A stretch of 64,000 nt of DNA from Escherichia phage ECML-359. The translations under genes and the position numbers were made by a program. The notes under the pieces are model-generated. The model was not told the DNA's origin. It saw only the letters and a program-made list of their open reading frames with translations, and ran no database searches. Where the stretch lies: the sequence record OL631482.1, one strand, 5' to 3'. Positions within the stretch are counted from its first letter, which is position 1. Every line of letters begins with the position of its first letter. Of the stretch, positions 1,518 to 8,329 are shown one piece after another.

Positions 1518-2111
1518 TTACTTAAGTGAATTGATGTATTCTTCAATGTCAGCGGACGTGGTATCCACACCAACCTGTGGACCTTTGAAGGTTTCAACAC
1601 GCATCAAGGTGTCTTCAATATCAATCTTAGTCAATGCAGCGATTTCAACAACATCATCTGCAGTCGCAATACCCAGGGCAGATACCTTACGGGTTTCGCG
1701 GATGTATTCCAGTTTAACAGCTAGTTCCTGACGAGAATCATCCAGCTCTTTAACTTTCAATTTAATTTCATTACGCATTTCAACATAATCGTCTGCCTTC
1801 TTACGAAGTTGTTTAGCAGTGCGACGATACAGGAGACCCAGTTTAGCATGGACCTGGACATCCGCGCCATCAGCAATCAGTTTGCGGATTTCACGCTCTT
1901 TTGAAGCGGCGAGTTGGTCTTTTTCATTCGCTAACTCGCGGATGCGTTTTTCTTCATTAACAGACTTAACGTGGGCGGTCTGGAGCTCAGTAATCTTGTC
2001 AATCAGGGTAGACGCCGCTTGAGTATATTGGTCTTCAATAGACAGGTTTTTTGCCATTGCAGTACCCAGTTTGGAGCGGATGAATTCAACAAGTTTCTTT
2101 AAAGTATTCAT
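1518..2111 (-). CDS. coiled-coil protein, unknown function (weak PspA/IM30-like heptad pattern)
   Basis: 197-aa ORF, strongly heptad-patterned charged sequence; hairpin terminator downstream at about 1495-1514. Confidence 0.6.
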
Positions 2112-2183
2112 GGTATTTCCTTCAGTTGGTTAATGTTTTATTATCCAGGGAACATACTATCATGTTCCCATTAAAGCACTAAT

Positions 2184-2489
2184 TTAGATTTTGTTTTCCT
2201 GCACACCATAGTAAAGTTCATCAGACACAATATCCAGGATGCGGCGAACATATTCATCATGGTATTGGCAGTCAAAATCAAATGCAACAGTAGTTTCCGC
2301 TTCACGAGTGAATTTAACTTGCACATTCAGGTGATTAACAACGTTAGTTAATTTATCAGTAAAGAACTCTTTTGCTACCGCCTGTTGGACTTGCACTTTA
2401 AACTTGGTGTTACGAATCATATTTTCAGCAGATGCGAAATTACCAGTTTTATCAAAGTCAACAAGCGCCAGGTTGATGATGAATTTCAT
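2184..2489 (-). CDS. hypothetical early protein
   Basis: 101-aa ORF; GGAG RBS; preceded by early-promoter stem-loop cassette 2490-2572. Confidence 0.6.
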   Translation of the reverse strand: MKFIINLALVDFDKTGNFASAENMIRNTKFKVQVQQAVAKEFFTDKLTNVVNHLNVQVKFTREAETTVAFDFDCQYHDEYVRRILDIVSDELYYGVQENKI

Positions 2490-2572
2490 TTTATTCTCCA
2501 GTGTTTTATTTGGTAACTCAGTATGGAATCATTATGCCTTAAAGCAGGGGGCTTGTATACCCCCTTTTTGAA
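2490..2572 (-). promoter_or_regulatory. early promoter with stem-loop and conserved leader
   Basis: hairpin agggggcttgtataccccct; -10 CATAAT; leader shared with copies at 3005-3086, 3513-3600, 41022-41100. Confidence 0.55.
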
Positions 2573-3004
2573 TTAAATTTCAAATTCTTTGCGGAAGTTG
2601 GAAGCATAAGACTGAACTGATGCTTTGTTGAATCCAAACTCACGCACAATCATATCAATAACAGCTCTGCGAGCAGCACCATTAGACATATTAACAGTTT
2701 TGAACATATCATAGCATAAATCTTTGTTGCTCATACCGGAGCGTTTAGGTGCCTTACGTTCAGCTTTAGGAGTAGGTTTAACTTCTGGTTTAACCTGTCC
2801 ATCATTCAGACCTTTAAAAATTTTACCTGCCAGAGTTGCCAGTTTAGCAGCTTCGCCACGAGTGATACCAAATACTGCCGGGTTAAATGAAATACCTTCA
2901 GCTGCCAGACGTTTGAAGAACATACGTGCTGCGGATTGTGCTTCAGCTTCAGAAGAGTTGTTTAATGCCAGCTTAACGTACTTAACCAGTTTTGAAGTTT
3001 TCAT
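2573..3004 (-). CDS. hypothetical early protein with shared C-terminal module
   Basis: 143-aa ORF; C-terminal NGAARRAVIDMIVREFGFNKASVQSYASNFRKEF shared with 3087..3512; own early promoter 3005-3086. Confidence 0.65.
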   Translation of the reverse strand: MKTSKLVKYVKLALNNSSEAEAQSAARMFFKRLAAEGISFNPAVFGITRGEAAKLATLAGKIFKGLNDGQVKPEVKPTPKAERKAPKRSGMSNKDLCYDMFKTVNMSNGAARRAVIDMIVREFGFNKASVQSYASNFRKEFEI

Positions 3005-3086
3005 TTTATTCTCCAGTGTTTTATTTGGTAACTCAGTATGGGATAATTATACACTATCCCACTTGGAAGTAAAACACTTTTCTCAA
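3005..3086 (-). promoter_or_regulatory. early promoter (-35 GTTTTAC, 17-nt spacer, -10 TATAAT) with -10 in the loop of a gggata/tatccc stem-loop
   Basis: minus-strand reading GTTTTACttccaagtgggatagtgTATAATtatccca...GGAG. Confidence 0.6.
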
Positions 3087-3512
3087 TTATTTTTGAGCTT
3101 TGCGGAAGTTGGAAGCATATGACTGAACAACAGTCTTTTTGATATCATGGGTGTTAACCAGAACATCAATCAGGGCGCGGCGAGCTGCACCATCTGCCAT
3201 ATCAATTTCTGCAAATGCCTGGAAGCAAATGTCACGAGCATTACCAGATTTGGACTGGATTTTTTCTTCTTTAACTTCTTCAATTGGGAATTCAATCATT
3301 TCAGCTTGGATTAATTCAATGATAGATTCTTTTGACTGTTTGGTGTTTACCTTCAGTTCAGAATTAAGGGACTTAGCGATGGCAACAATCTGGGTTGAAG
3401 TCAGATGAATAAGTGCATCTTCACGAATGCAGATTTCACATACTTCGTCGGCAACCATTTTGTTAGTGATGCGGGTAACAGAGAATGCAGAAGTCAGGGT
3501 CAGGAAGTTCAT
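3087..3512 (-). CDS. hypothetical early protein with shared C-terminal module
   Basis: ORF track 3087..3593 trimmed to ATG (MNFLTLTS...) with GGAGA RBS; C-terminal DGAARRALIDVLV...VVQSYASNFRKAQK. Confidence 0.6.
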   Translation of the reverse strand: MNFLTLTSAFSVTRITNKMVADEVCEICIREDALIHLTSTQIVAIAKSLNSELKVNTKQSKESIIELIQAEMIEFPIEEVKEEKIQSKSGNARDICFQAFAEIDMADGAARRALIDVLVNTHDIKKTVVQSYASNFRKAQK

Positions 3513-3600
3513 TTTATTTCTCCAAAGTTTTGTTTGATTCAGTGTGTAACTCAGTATGGAATCATTATGCATCCAGTCAATTCGGATGTACACTACTTTT
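3513..3600 (-). promoter_or_regulatory. early promoter (-35 GTGTAC, 17-nt spacer, -10 CATAAT) with conserved leader
   Basis: same leader ccatactgagtta... as neighbouring cassettes. Confidence 0.55.
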
Positions 3601-3617
3601 TGAAGAAATATTAAAAA

Positions 3618-3637
3618 TAAACCCGCCGAAGCGGGTT
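3618..3637 (-). terminator. hairpin terminator
   Basis: aaacccgccgaagcgggttt. Confidence 0.5.
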
Positions 3638-3640
3638 TGA

Positions 3641-4195
3641 TTAGTTCTTATAAAAGCGGAACGGATTTATATGAAAGGCGAGCATAGCCTTAGGGATTGG
3701 TCGGGACAGAAGACTCTTGAGCTTCCAGCCACAATAAACGCGCAGATAAAAGGTGATTCCACCGACCTTGAGATAAGGAACAGAAGCAAAAACACCCCAG
3801 GCATTATCCGTCCACATCCAGAGCCATCCGTGATGAGCTTTATCCGGGGAGCCGGATTCAACATCAGGATTACCTTTATAATGGAATTCTGAATTGCAAT
3901 CACGACCGAGCTTGTGGTAAGCAAAATTGTATGCTTTGTTTCGCCAGAGCCAGGCTACTCGTTGGAAGTAAACACCTAATGGCCATTTTCGGATTTTTGA
4001 CCAACGCTCGACATGACCCCGGTCACCATCAATCGGATTATCATAAGTCATCATCCAATCAAACCCGAACGGAAGTTTACCAGTCTTTTTATTATGGAAT
4101 GGAACTACAAATGGAGCCAGGATAACGGCCAGAATCATGGAGATAAAATCCAGTGGAACTAACAGAATCCAACTCAAATATTTTAACAGTTTCAT
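3641..4195 (-). CDS. membrane-anchored Trp-rich protein, unknown function
   Basis: ORF track 3641..4273 trimmed to ATG (MKLLKYLSWILL...); N-terminal TM helix; hairpin terminators on both sides. Confidence 0.6.
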   Translation of the reverse strand: MKLLKYLSWILLVPLDFISMILAVILAPFVVPFHNKKTGKLPFGFDWMMTYDNPIDGDRGHVERWSKIRKWPLGVYFQRVAWLWRNKAYNFAYHKLGRDCNSEFHYKGNPDVESGSPDKAHHGWLWMWTDNAWGVFASVPYLKVGGITFYLRVYCGWKLKSLLSRPIPKAMLAFHINPFRFYKN

Positions 4196-4223
4196 ACGTT
4201 TCTCTTTAGTTGATTTATAAAAA

Positions 4224-4246
4224 AGCCCCAACCTTTCGGAAGGGGC
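4224..4246 (-). terminator. hairpin terminator after 4285..4668
   Basis: agccccaacctttcggaaggggct. Confidence 0.45.
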
Positions 4247-4284
4247 TATACCTTGTCGGGGTTCCACCTGCAAGGCAAGTGTTC

Positions 4285-4668
4285 TTATCCGCGAGCGAAT
4301 GCCATTGCGGCGCGTTCGTTGGCACGGTCGGTGATGTTCAAGAATTTATCACGAGCGATTTCGATTGGAGCGCCAACCCAGTCAGCAGCACCATTACCTG
4401 GAGACTGTTTAGGGCGAACCATATAAGTTGAAACTTTAGAACCGGCCAGTTTGGCACCTGGTGCCGCGGCATTTTTAACGTCTTTAGCTTTGATGCCAAA
4501 CCCAGTTACGATACCCCAAGAAACACCATTAACTGGTTTCTTGAACATAACACGGTCACCAATTGAAACACCGGCTTTTTCTGGAGCCACTAAAGAAAAT
4601 TTACCAGCTTCAGTCAGTACGGATTCGGTGATGGTATTGCGATTTAAAAATTCTGCATATGTAAGCAT
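4285..4668 (-). CDS. internal-protein-like protein with capsid-targeting-like N-terminus
   Basis: N-terminus MLTYAEFLNRN resembles T4 internal-protein leader MKTYQEFIAEA; TATAAATA late promoter on minus strand just upstream (about 4702-4709). Confidence 0.55.
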   Translation of the reverse strand: MLTYAEFLNRNTITESVLTEAGKFSLVAPEKAGVSIGDRVMFKKPVNGVSWGIVTGFGIKAKDVKNAAAPGAKLAGSKVSTYMVRPKQSPGNGAADWVGAPIEIARDKFLNITDRANERAAMAFARG

Positions 4669-5156: not shown

Positions 5157-5233
5157 TGGTCGGGGTGGTGGGATTCTAACCCACAACCTACGGTTTAGAA
5201 GACCGTTGCTCTATACAATTGAGCTACACCCCG
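5157..5233 (-). tRNA. tRNA-Arg (anticodon TCT)
   Basis: Hand-folded cloverleaf: acceptor CGGGGTG/CACCCCG, anticodon loop CTTCTAA, T-arm GTGGG-TTAGAAT-CCCAC, encoded CCA. Confidence 0.85.
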
Positions 5234-5309
5234 GGTGGCCCCATCCGGACTTGAACCGGAAACCTGCCAGTTATGAGCCGGATGCTCTAACCAATTGAGC
5301 TACAGGGCC
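5234..5309 (-). tRNA. tRNA with CAT anticodon (Met by anticodon; the T4 counterpart with CAU is tRNA-Ile)
   Basis: acceptor GGCCCTG/TGGGGCC, D-arm GCTCAATTGGTTAGAGC, anticodon loop CTCATAA, T-arm CCGG-TTCAAGT-CCGG; directly abuts tRNA-Arg. Confidence 0.8.
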
Positions 5310-6751: not shown

Positions 6752-6808
6752 TTTATTCTCCTCAGTAGTTGATGGGATAATTATACGCTATCCCATTCAA
6801 AAGTACAC
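6752..6808 (-). promoter_or_regulatory. early promoter in stem-loop (tgggata/tatccca) upstream of 6566..6751
   Basis: -10 TATAAT in loop; -35-like GTGTAC 17 nt upstream. Confidence 0.5.
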
Positions 6809-7063
6809 TTATTTTTTAGGGATACGATAGTAACGCATCTCAACATCTTTCTGCTTGTGCCACTTTTTGATAAGGTCTTCAGAACCTTTAATGGTAACGA
6901 TGTCATAGCGACCATCATGCGATACTTCAGCACTTAACTGCATGAAGTTGTCTAGTGAACGGCGCAATTCCTCATTAGAAAAACTACCACGCGGGGAACC
7001 AACATAAGCAAACTCAACTTTTGCATCTGCGGCTTCGTTAATAAATTCTTGATAAGTTTTCAT
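6809..7063 (-). CDS. internal protein (capsid-targeting leader MKTYQEFINEA)
   Basis: N-terminus matches T4 IP capsid-targeting sequence; 84 aa; own promoter cassette. Confidence 0.75.
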   Translation of the reverse strand: MKTYQEFINEAADAKVEFAYVGSPRGSFSNEELRRSLDNFMQLSAEVSHDGRYDIVTIKGSEDLIKKWHKQKDVEMRYYRIPKK

Positions 7064-7119
7064 GTTGTCTCCAGTAGTTGATGAGATAATTATACTGCAG
7101 TTATCCCATCGCGTATACT
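7064..7119 (-). promoter_or_regulatory. early promoter in stem-loop (internal-protein cassette)
   Basis: gatgagataattatactgcagttatcccatc; -10 TATAAT. Confidence 0.5.
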
Positions 7120-7362
7120 TTATTTTAAGTCTTCCAGACGTTTTTTCATCTTGGTGCCGTTCTTAGCAATCTCGCCTGCATCAGAACAAAGAGCAAGGAG
7201 AGCTTTAACTTTACCCTGGTCGCCTTTAAAAGATGATGCATCTACTGAATCAGCAAGTTCTTTGATACGTGCAAACAGGCGCTCTGCTTCAGCAAGGGCT
7301 TGACCAAGTTTAACTTCCATACCATGGGAAGATTCTGTTATAAATGTTTGATAAGTTTTCAT
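7120..7362 (-). CDS. internal protein (leader MKTYQTFITES)
   Basis: capsid-targeting-like N-terminus; 80 aa; own promoter cassette 7363-7407. Confidence 0.7.
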   Translation of the reverse strand: MKTYQTFITESSHGMEVKLGQALAEAERLFARIKELADSVDASSFKGDQGKVKALLALCSDAGEIAKNGTKMKKRLEDLK

Positions 7363-7407
7363 GTTGTCTCCAAGCCATAAAAAGGGGATAATTATCCCCT
7401 TTTGTTA
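7363..7407 (-). promoter_or_regulatory. perfect 24-nt palindrome aaaaggggataattatcccctttt (terminator/promoter cassette)
   Basis: perfect inverted repeat between two internal-protein genes. Confidence 0.5.
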
Positions 7408-7707
7408 TTACATCTTACTACCACGAATTACGCCATAAGCAGCGAAGTCGTCAGTGATATTTTTAGGAGTGTTTTTACCCGTTTCAATGAAAGCGATGCT
7501 TGATTTCTGACTAAAAGAGGTAATTTTGTTATAGTTAGAGTCAAGGAAGGTATAACCATTTTTACGCAGCTGGTCAAAGTCTTCAGCGTCGCCTTTACCT
7601 TTGAAGTCAACCCATTTGTAGGTGTTTTTCTTCTGAAGGCCCAGAGGCCAGGTTTTTGCTTCTGCCAGGTAATTGTTTTCTACCAAAAATTCATGAAAAG
7701 TTTGCAT
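7408..7707 (-). CDS. internal protein (leader MQTFHEFLVEN)
   Basis: capsid-targeting-like N-terminus; 99 aa. Confidence 0.65.
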   Translation of the reverse strand: MQTFHEFLVENNYLAEAKTWPLGLQKKNTYKWVDFKGKGDAEDFDQLRKNGYTFLDSNYNKITSFSQKSSIAFIETGKNTPKNITDDFAAYGVIRGSKM

Positions 7708-7715
7708 TTGAAATC

Positions 7716-7988
7716 CTATTTAAGATAAATTGCGTATTTTTTATAACCAGCCGTCTCATGGCGAAGACCCTTGTCATTGGCAAAACGCTCAATGTTATTA
7801 ATTTGGTTCTGGTCAAGTTCTGAAATGCCAAACGCGAAAAAGTTGCGTTTGTTGCCAATTGTTATATGGTCAGTTAAGTCAATGCTATACAGGTGATTGA
7901 TATTGTCAATCATAGCTTTGACTGCTTTACTAATTTTTACTTCTTCATTTAGTTGTGACTCGTTGAAAAATTCATTGAAAGTTTTCAT
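7716..7988 (-). CDS. internal protein (leader MKTFNEFFNES)
   Basis: capsid-targeting-like N-terminus; 90 aa. Confidence 0.65.
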   Translation of the reverse strand: MKTFNEFFNESQLNEEVKISKAVKAMIDNINHLYSIDLTDHITIGNKRNFFAFGISELDQNQINNIERFANDKGLRHETAGYKKYAIYLK

Positions 7989-7996
7989 AAGAAACC

Positions 7997-8329
7997 TTAT
8001 TTATAAAGTTTTGCTAGTTCTTTACGTCCGCGAGCAGACATAATAAATTGTTCATCGCCAATTTTAAAATAAGCCATACCGCCGTCAACAGCGATACCAA
8101 TTTCTTTAGTACCTTCTTTGCCTTTCCACTTGCCACCAGATTTCAGGACAGCTTCAACTGCAGCTTTGGAATATTTGGACGTTTGAAAACGTTCATTACC
8201 AATCTGAAAGAAAACACCATCTGCATTTTTGGTTAAACCAAATTTCAGGGAGCCTTCACTATCATCAATTGATTTGGTCTCATTGATGGCGGATTCGGCT
8301 AAAAACTCGTTGTAAGTTTTGATGTTCAT
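7997..8329 (-). CDS. internal protein (leader MNIKTYNEFLAES)
   Basis: capsid-targeting-like N-terminus; 110 aa; early promoter stem-loop 8330-8393 upstream. Confidence 0.65.
   Translation of the reverse strand: MNIKTYNEFLAESAINETKSIDDSEGSLKFGLTKNADGVFFQIGNERFQTSKYSKAAVEAVLKSGGKWKGKEGTKEIGIAVDGGMAYFKIGDEQFIMSARGRKELAKLYK

Follow-up and report, generated by a model that had tools for sequence, protein, structure and literature searches.

A three-helix C-terminal module common to two neighbouring small genes of Escherichia phage ECML-359

In phage T4, the capsid-targeting sequence of the internal head proteins is an N-terminal peptide of about 10 residues that is cleaved off. To our knowledge, no function has been assigned to the majority of the small early genes that populate the variable regions of T4-like phages. 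Here, we describe two adjacent small genes, ORF1 and ORF2 (ORF, open reading frame), within a 64,000-nucleotide window of Escherichia phage ECML-359 (OL631482.1), whose products carry different N-terminal heads on a common C-terminal tail. In logic only, this arrangement resembles the capsid-targeting sequence, in that a common address is attached to unrelated cargo encoded by neighbouring small genes; unlike that sequence, the ECML-359 element is a folded, 50-residue, C-terminal domain. The segment at 2000-4400 is 96-98% identical to Gaprivervirus genomes (EAWsc9, UPEC07, TH55, SP18 group), and by sequence the source phage is assigned to this T4-like genus (Straboviridae, Tevenvirinae).

Gene shuffling in the variable regions of T4-type phages is mediated by promoter-early stem-loop (PeSL) cassettes (Arbiol et al. 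2010, PMC2839356; Comeau et al. 2014, PMC4122927), whose promoter consensus is TTTACW-N17-TAYWAT (PMC4122927). As in PeSL cassettes, three consecutive genes at the ECML-359 locus, ORF1 and ORF2 among them, have a sigma-70-like promoter near the consensus, two of the three with an adjacent hairpin. PeSL cassettes account for the movement of whole genes, however, and not for the joining of a tail to different heads. With regard to the proteins themselves, T4 MotB is described as a small, basic, non-essential early DNA-binding protein of T-even phages (PMC7827196). ORF1 is similar to proteins of the MotB type in its isoelectric point (pI) of 10.1 and its histone-H1-like linker, and its counterpart in EAWsc9 is labelled 'H15 domain', but no sequence relation of ORF1 or ORF2 to MotB or to other small nucleoid-binding early proteins was found.

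Different heads on a common tail

Formal alignment confirmed that ORF1 and ORF2 have a C-terminal segment in common. BLASTP returned a single alignment between the two proteins, pairing residues 82-139 with residues 82-138 (28/58 identical, 48%; E=7e-18), and comparison of the two family alignments with hhalign gave a probability of 98.9% and E=1.7e-17, confined to residues 93-142 and 92-139. The similarity of the tails is therefore far beyond chance. Both proteins, with the peptides quoted for them in the original prediction, are present and are encoded on the minus strand, which had been left unstated (Table 1). The ends had been called near-identical; they are homologous, but only 48-59% identical, with 20/34 matches over the 34 residues quoted, and the decapeptide VQSYASNFRK is the only fully identical stretch between both tails. 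The extent first given to the module was too short, as the real module starts earlier and spans about 50 residues, including a first helix (KDLCYDMF in ORF1, RDICFQAF in ORF2). Full-length hidden Markov model (HMM) matches to PHROG families were obtained for ORF1 (phrog_18416, E=1e-87) and ORF2 (phrog_9997, E=1.7e-70), and each protein also matches the other's family, as well as the 71-residue phrog_17275, a stand-alone tail, through the tail alone (cross-matches at 1e-16). PHROGs lists each of the three families as 'function unknown'. The window contains two copies of the module only.

Upstream of the module, neither BLASTP nor profile comparison aligned ORF1 with ORF2, in agreement with the earlier statement that their N-termini are unrelated. 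AlphaFold2 models were obtained for ORF1 from a 6-sequence alignment (mean predicted local distance difference test score, pLDDT, 77) and for ORF2 from 19 sequences (mean pLDDT 85). The ORF1 model has helices at residues 3-15, 19-36 and 49-58, disorder at about 60-92, and then helices at 93-101, 109-123 and 127-141; that of ORF2 has three short strands, helices at 31-36, 39-49 and 61-74, a short linker, and helices at 92-100, 108-122 and 126-140. Thus, the head folds differ, all-alpha versus short strands plus helices, and the three-helix tail is modelled confidently in both proteins (pLDDT 82-91), indicating that two heads are carried on one three-helix tail.

The heads also differ in composition. 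ORF1, whose N-terminal part was described at the outset as basic and Ala-rich, has a net charge of +13 as a whole, and its N-terminal domain has a pI of 10.1 and 12 Ala in 69 residues, in keeping with that description. The ORF2 head is acidic (pI 4.9); the claim that it is Cys- and Ile-rich holds for Ile (11 of 78 residues), but there are only two Cys. This head carries a SAP/Rho-N-like motif, with a score below the gathering score of Rho_N (Pfam PF07498). For ORF1, DUF2786 (Pfam PF10979) gave no match, the ORF1 orthologue in Yersinia phage vB_YenM_P744 (hereafter P744) reaching E=0.17 and 12.3 bits against a cut-off of 23.9. Profiles of the heads found nothing significant among PDB sequences, and a match of one head profile to T7 Gp2 (E=0.49) is not to be trusted. 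In the linker of ORF1, the number of PKAE units differs by strain, with one in ECML-359, two in P479, and four in EAWsc9, where the array (L001 5759-5804) is a perfect tandem repeat of 12 nucleotides x 3.8; no tandem repeat was found in the ORF1 linker of ECML-359. The variation in length, within a linker that is basic and disordered, is of the slippage type.

At the DNA level, the shared decapeptide is encoded by a 31-nucleotide patch that contains one synonymous-site difference in 10 identical codons, compared to 7 in 14 in the rest of the module. This near-identity is suggestive of gene conversion, although the sample is too small for certainty, and it hints at either local conversion or joint constraint. 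Helix 3 also covaries by genome in both paralogues, with F or Y in SN[FY]RK and accompanying changes in the residues preceding VQSY. Identities between tails are 46-58% among ORF1-type proteins, 41-82% among ORF2-type proteins and 39-54% across types; given that the tails cluster mainly by type, the duplication is old.

Family members, gene pairing and an analogue in phage P744

When 1.84 billion cluster representatives were scanned in full with HMMER, only 13 family members were found, and IMG/VR contains 12 loci. Two further long proteins from the scan (P0036 and P0037), with 11 and 5 short matching stretches, look like a repeat artefact. A word-indexed search with the module profile returned two proteins only and nothing new, and the BFVD search yielded uncharacterised relatives only. 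Neither ORF1, ORF2 nor the stand-alone copy had a meaningful match in Pfam, NCBIfam or PADLOC, where matches to PBP_like, a CT847 effector, Crl and others fell far under their cut-offs. T4 has no homologue of the module, its motA.1 being a different gene of 49 amino acids. The tail family is thus very narrow and is not in Pfam.

To determine the architectures, profiles built for each head and for the tail were run against all fetched loci, in addition to inspection of the sequences. The tail follows an ORF2 head, an ORF1 head or a third head (P0027, P0033), and it also occurs alone, as a protein of 69-74 amino acids (P0030, P0035). In phage VR7, a truncated ORF1 head lacks the tail. In the Rosemountvirus group of about 52 kb (BP63 gp11, fHy-Eco03 gp07), an ORF2-type protein has a divergent tail plus an acidic extension. 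Gapriverviruses carry a tail-only gene of 71 amino acids adjoining motA, where T4 has only an intergenic promoter region. The searched parts of the EAWsc9 genome contain three module copies only (ORF1, ORF2 and this gene). The EAWsc9 record mislabels the tail-only gene 'thioredoxin'. Product names of many other ORFs of 60-100 amino acids in this record also look spurious (malate synthase, transposase, VirB3, ovule protein) and are unsuitable as evidence. The gene for fHy-Eco03 gp07 (L015 2001-2573) lies inside a 3.7-kb direct terminal repeat and is consequently present in two copies per genome. Its product was found by liquid chromatography-tandem mass spectrometry in purified particles, but 48/81 gene products, even a resolvase, were called particle-associated in that study, and because this criterion is permissive we do not rely on a virion role for the Rosemountvirus homologue.

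In ECML-359, other Gapriverviruses and a divergent T4-like contig (L009, 55-65% identity), the ORF1-type gene comes no more than a few hundred bases after an ORF2-type gene. The pair is also present in Morganella phage MP1, in reversed order, and in Erwinia phage RF1, with a gene for an HNH-type endonuclease between both (L007 3127-3630); related contigs of about 45 kb have an ORF of 44 or 62 amino acids where RF1 has the HNH gene. Contigs of about 45 kb with the pair (L010, L018 and L025) carry a Phage_portal_3/Terminase_6 packaging set and are not T4-like, and in these contigs both genes constitute a small divergently oriented unit. In L017, the second position, after the ORF2-type gene, is taken by the same tail on the third head. 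Acinetobacter 133 and ZZ1-like phages, as well as Rosemountvirus, carry the ORF2-type gene only, indicating that the partnership is frequent but not obligatory. From these comparisons, the pair is old and moves as a unit among several T4-like lineages and unrelated phages of about 45 kb. The domain swapping proposed in the original prediction is borne out to the extent that the tail is found on at least three heads and alone, and the ORF1 head with another tail (P744) or none (VR7); it does not extend to a recent exchange between the adjacent genes at this locus, because the pair with both architectures is old and travels as a unit through lineages. The tail is best described as a new small family of a familiar kind, that of modular small phage proteins with an HTH-like (helix-turn-helix-like) domain, whose pairing is unusually well conserved.

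VR7 also provides a view of turnover at the locus (L013 1431-2007). Here the ORF1 gene is shortened to 68 amino acids, comprising the head only; an additional ORF146c of 98 amino acids lies between the truncated ORF145c and the ORF2 gene, and e.4 follows directly. This arrangement shows recent gene gain and loss at the ORF1/ORF2 locus.

A related pattern was observed in P744 (42 kb). Its ORF038 has an ORF1 head (phrog_18416, E=5.7e-20), ORF036 has a weak Rho_N match, and the two, which are one gene apart, have a C-terminal segment in common (BLASTP E=1e-7). P744 is thus similar to ECML-359 in placing a Rho_N/SAP-like protein and a protein with an ORF1 head close together with a common tail. 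It differs in that its shared tail is not detectably related to that of ECML-359 (hhalign E=0.06 and 0.64) and in that the ORF036 head is not demonstrably homologous to that of ORF2 (E=0.087, not significant). By analogy, this recurrence of two heads on one tail, with a different tail, is the best support for the proposal that the tail acts as a common address.

What the tail resembles and what it may do

The best structural matches of the tail are DNA-binding domains, namely BEN, many homeodomains and MogR, and in the models its three helices superpose on those of homeodomains, consistent with a three-helix HTH layout like that of engrailed, MATalpha2, ZFHX3, BEN and MogR. When a profile built from 23 diverse tails (A7) was compared with all PDB sequences, one match had E<0.1, the ZFHX3 homeodomain 2da3 (E=0.003), with VVQSYASN of the module aligned on VVQVWFQN of the recognition helix. 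In this register, Tyr, Asn and Arg of the module fall opposite Trp48, Asn51 and Arg53, respectively, and the residues at the homeodomain signature W48, F49, N51 and R53 are Y, A, N and R. The 2da3 alignment stops short of helix 1, where the invariant C9 and F13 have the spacing of what we take to be the homeodomain core residues L16 and F20. Helix 3 holds the remaining residues that are invariant or nearly so (V-Q-S-Y and S47), and together they span the surface with which homeodomains contact DNA; family-wide, conservation comprises the two helix-1 core positions and Q, S and S of helix 3, on the side that homeodomains place against the major groove. The pI of each tail is about 9. Foldseek comparison of the ORF1 model with the PDB gave weak homeodomain matches (Exd 1b8i, TM 0.57 on target) and none with E<2.5. 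Taken together, the fold and profile evidence points to a predicted homeodomain-like HTH that may serve as a nucleic-acid-binding address domain; the interaction or localisation module of the original prediction is too vague a description. Matches of a narrower profile (A3) to TAL effectors were dismissed as a repeat-summing artefact, since each of 14-23 repeats contributes -2.5 to +4.5 bits (per-repeat E >300) and only their sum gives the whole-protein E-values of 1.9e-16 and similar; with the broader A7 these matches were absent.

Several observations weigh against this assignment. The Pfam HTH and Homeodomain models match 0/23 module sequences, and the Homeodomain model (PF00046) has no match at E<=1 for ORF1 or ORF2 either. 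The net charge of the module is only +2, the equivalent of Asn51 is D, S, M or Y in some members, and it is not obvious that one DNA sequence would be common to the Escherichia, Erwinia, Acinetobacter, Morganella and Salmonella phages. In comparison to homeodomains, helix 2 and the loop of the tail are about 4 residues longer, Tyr-Ala replaces Trp48-Phe49, and the strongest conservation (V-Q-S-Y) falls at the start of helix 3. Judged by the full BEN fold and the family HMM, the tail is not a BEN domain.

The explanation that we tentatively favour is that a homeodomain-like HTH address domain places two heads and a head-less copy on a common nucleic-acid target. ORF1 and ORF2 would then be a conserved pair of small proteins, each made of a differing head, a flexible linker and the same tail, and the tail would bring both onto the same target, most likely double-stranded DNA. 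Contact would be made by the conserved polar face of helix 3, V-Q-S-Y-A-S-N-[FY]-R-K, aided by basic residues preceding helix 1, and the heads would carry out different jobs at the common site. The basic helical head of ORF1, together with its histone-H1-like Lys/Pro/Ala linker, may provide extra DNA affinity or coating, the acidic ORF2 head with its SAP/Rho-N-like motif may be an adaptor or a second nucleic-acid contact, and the stand-alone tail upstream of motA could occupy the same sites without a head.

An alternative that is somewhat doubtful is that the tail is a protein-binding domain, docking the heads and the stand-alone copy on a single conserved protein of the host, for instance a nucleoid protein or a subunit of RNA polymerase. 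Small helical early proteins of T4, including AsiA, Alc and the MotA N-domain, commonly bind host proteins, and the stand-alone copy lies directly beside motA, probably in the same transcript. The conservation of the surface across host genera would be explained by a conserved host protein no less readily than by a DNA sequence, and the mild basicity of the module is in line with such docking. However, the strongly basic character of ORF1 overall and the DNA-binding domains among the best fold and profile matches argue for nucleic acid, as do the small size and polar character of the conserved face (Q, S, S, N, R, K), which are typical of nucleic-acid contact and not of a hydrophobic interface.

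We consider it unlikely that the tail is a dimerisation domain, such that ORF1 and ORF2 form a heterodimer, the stand-alone copy competes, and the pairing of the genes reflects an obligate two-subunit complex. Such a complex could account for the conserved adjacency of the genes in many unrelated genomes, the apparent homogenisation of helix 3 within genomes (the covariation and the 30/31 identical nucleotides) and the separate common tail of the P744 pair. Nevertheless, the invariant residues are polar or core, with no exposed hydrophobic patch, and the phages with the ORF2-type gene only and the loss of the ORF1 tail in VR7 imply that a heterodimer is not obligatory. Plain tandem duplication without domain shuffling, in which the N-terminal halves have diverged past recognition, is highly improbable. 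The adjacent position, similar length and identical head-linker-tail layout of the two genes would be expected under it, but the predicted head folds differ, each head family is well conserved in its own right, the tail also occurs by itself or joined to a third head, and the ORF1 head exists with another tail. Similarity due to chance or composition is a negligible prospect in light of the BLASTP, hhalign and PHROG cross-match E-values.

Beyond the favoured placement of two heads on a common nucleic-acid target lies a broader proposal that we regard as quite improbable in its entirety. It would make ORF1 and ORF2 a portable two-protein early module, in which an undescribed address domain takes two effector heads to one conserved host target (a DNA site or structure, or a host protein), the motA-coupled head-less copy tunes occupancy, and the address is replaced jointly in both partners, as in P744; this would be a general host-takeover design of two heads with one address that moves between unrelated lineages. 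Irrespective of these readings, the tail is a compact rare domain that marks a two-gene unit common to T4-like and unrelated phages of about 45 kb. If it is a specific DNA- or protein-binding address, one bait would report the target of three proteins, and the locus would illustrate cleanly how phages make host-takeover proteins by fusing heads with a shared address; were it a non-specific DNA-binding HTH, the case would be ordinary.

Promoter cassettes and genomic setting

The features of the locus are listed in Table 1. A unit of 52 nucleotides containing the -10 element, the leader and the ribosome-binding site occurs three times on the minus strand (2484-2535, 2999-3050 and 3517-3568), the first two copies being 96% identical and the third 69%. 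The 14-mer CCATACTGAGTTAC within the leader has exactly three occurrences in the 64 kb. Two cassettes are flanked by hairpins, and the third, that of ORF1, has just a short hairpin around the -10 element. We assign the start of ORF2 to 3512, as likewise annotated in EAWsc9, because this position follows the conserved leader and GGAG. The longest ORF begins with a GTG at 3593, but that codon is inside the predicted promoter, whose -35 hexamer is at 3592, and is not the start. The leaders are unstructured, folding less well than shuffled controls, and no Rfam family matched them as a structured RNA.

Similar to PeSL cassettes, those of ECML-359 are located in a variable region that holds different genes in close relatives (VR7, T4); unlike them, the unit runs on into a 5' leader of 40 nucleotides and a ribosome-binding site. 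By sequence, the ECML-359 cassettes resemble the PeSL kind. ORF1 and ORF2 are probably expressed early, judged solely from the sigma-70/T4-early-like promoter matches upstream. The variable region is bounded by tRNA genes on one side and the e.6 orthologue on the other, with all genes of this stretch on the minus strand. In T4, e.7 and e.8 occupy the equivalent slot and are unrelated to the five genes found there in ECML-359.

Table 1. Positions of ORF1, ORF2, their parts and neighbouring features in ECML-359, and of the stand-alone copy in EAWsc9
Feature	Position	Strand	Remarks
ORF1	2573..3004	minus	143 amino acids (aa); phrog_18416; pI 10.1
ORF1 N-terminal domain (aa 1-69)	2798..3004	minus	all-alpha, basic; motif LALNNSSEAEAQSAARMFF
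ORF1 linker	2732..2797	minus	disordered, Lys/Pro/Ala-rich (VKPE VKPT PKAE RKAP KR); pLDDT <50 at aa 71-87
ORF1 copy of three-helix C-terminal module (aa 92-143)	2576..2731	minus	
31-nucleotide stretch in ORF1	2587..2617	minus	matches the stretch in ORF2
ORF2	3087..3512	minus	141 aa; phrog_9997; start ATG at 3512 after GGAG
ORF2 copy of three-helix C-terminal module (aa 91-141)	3090..3242	minus	
31-nucleotide stretch in ORF2	3098..3128	minus	codes for VQSYASNFRK; 30/31 identical to ORF1 2587-2617
Cassette upstream of ORF2	3513..3640	minus	hairpin + T-run (3619-3638); promoter-like TGTACA-17-CATAAT (3592-3564); leader CCATACTGAGTTAC; GGAG
Cassette upstream of ORF1	3005..3086	minus	promoter-like TTTACT-16-TATAAT (3073-3046); same leader
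Cassette upstream of next gene	2490..2572	minus	hairpin (2546-2565) overlapping promoter-like TATACA-17-CATAAT; same leader
Third cassette-bearing gene	2184..2489	minus	101 aa; phrog_7474; without the shared module
e.6 orthologue	1518-2111		75% identical to T4 e.6
tRNA-Arg and CAT-anticodon tRNA	5157-5309		
Stand-alone module gene	L003 34572-34787 (EAWsc9 67571-67786)		71 aa; beyond the window; ends 3 nucleotides before motA start

A repeat of 34 nucleotides at 3038-3071 and 6772-6805 (85% identical) precedes ORF1 and another small gene; its short hairpin (GGGATA...TATCCC) encloses a TATAAT-like -10 element in the loop. At 6809-8329, five small ORFs on the minus strand begin with similar N-termini (MKTYQEFINE, MKTYQTFITE, MQTFHEFLVE, MKTFNEFFNE and MNIKTYNEFLAE) and are otherwise unrelated, and two of the five are annotated as internal head proteins in EAWsc9. 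Judging from these N-termini, the run looks like a capsid-targeting-sequence array, and it would be a second case in the window of a shared address on different cargo.
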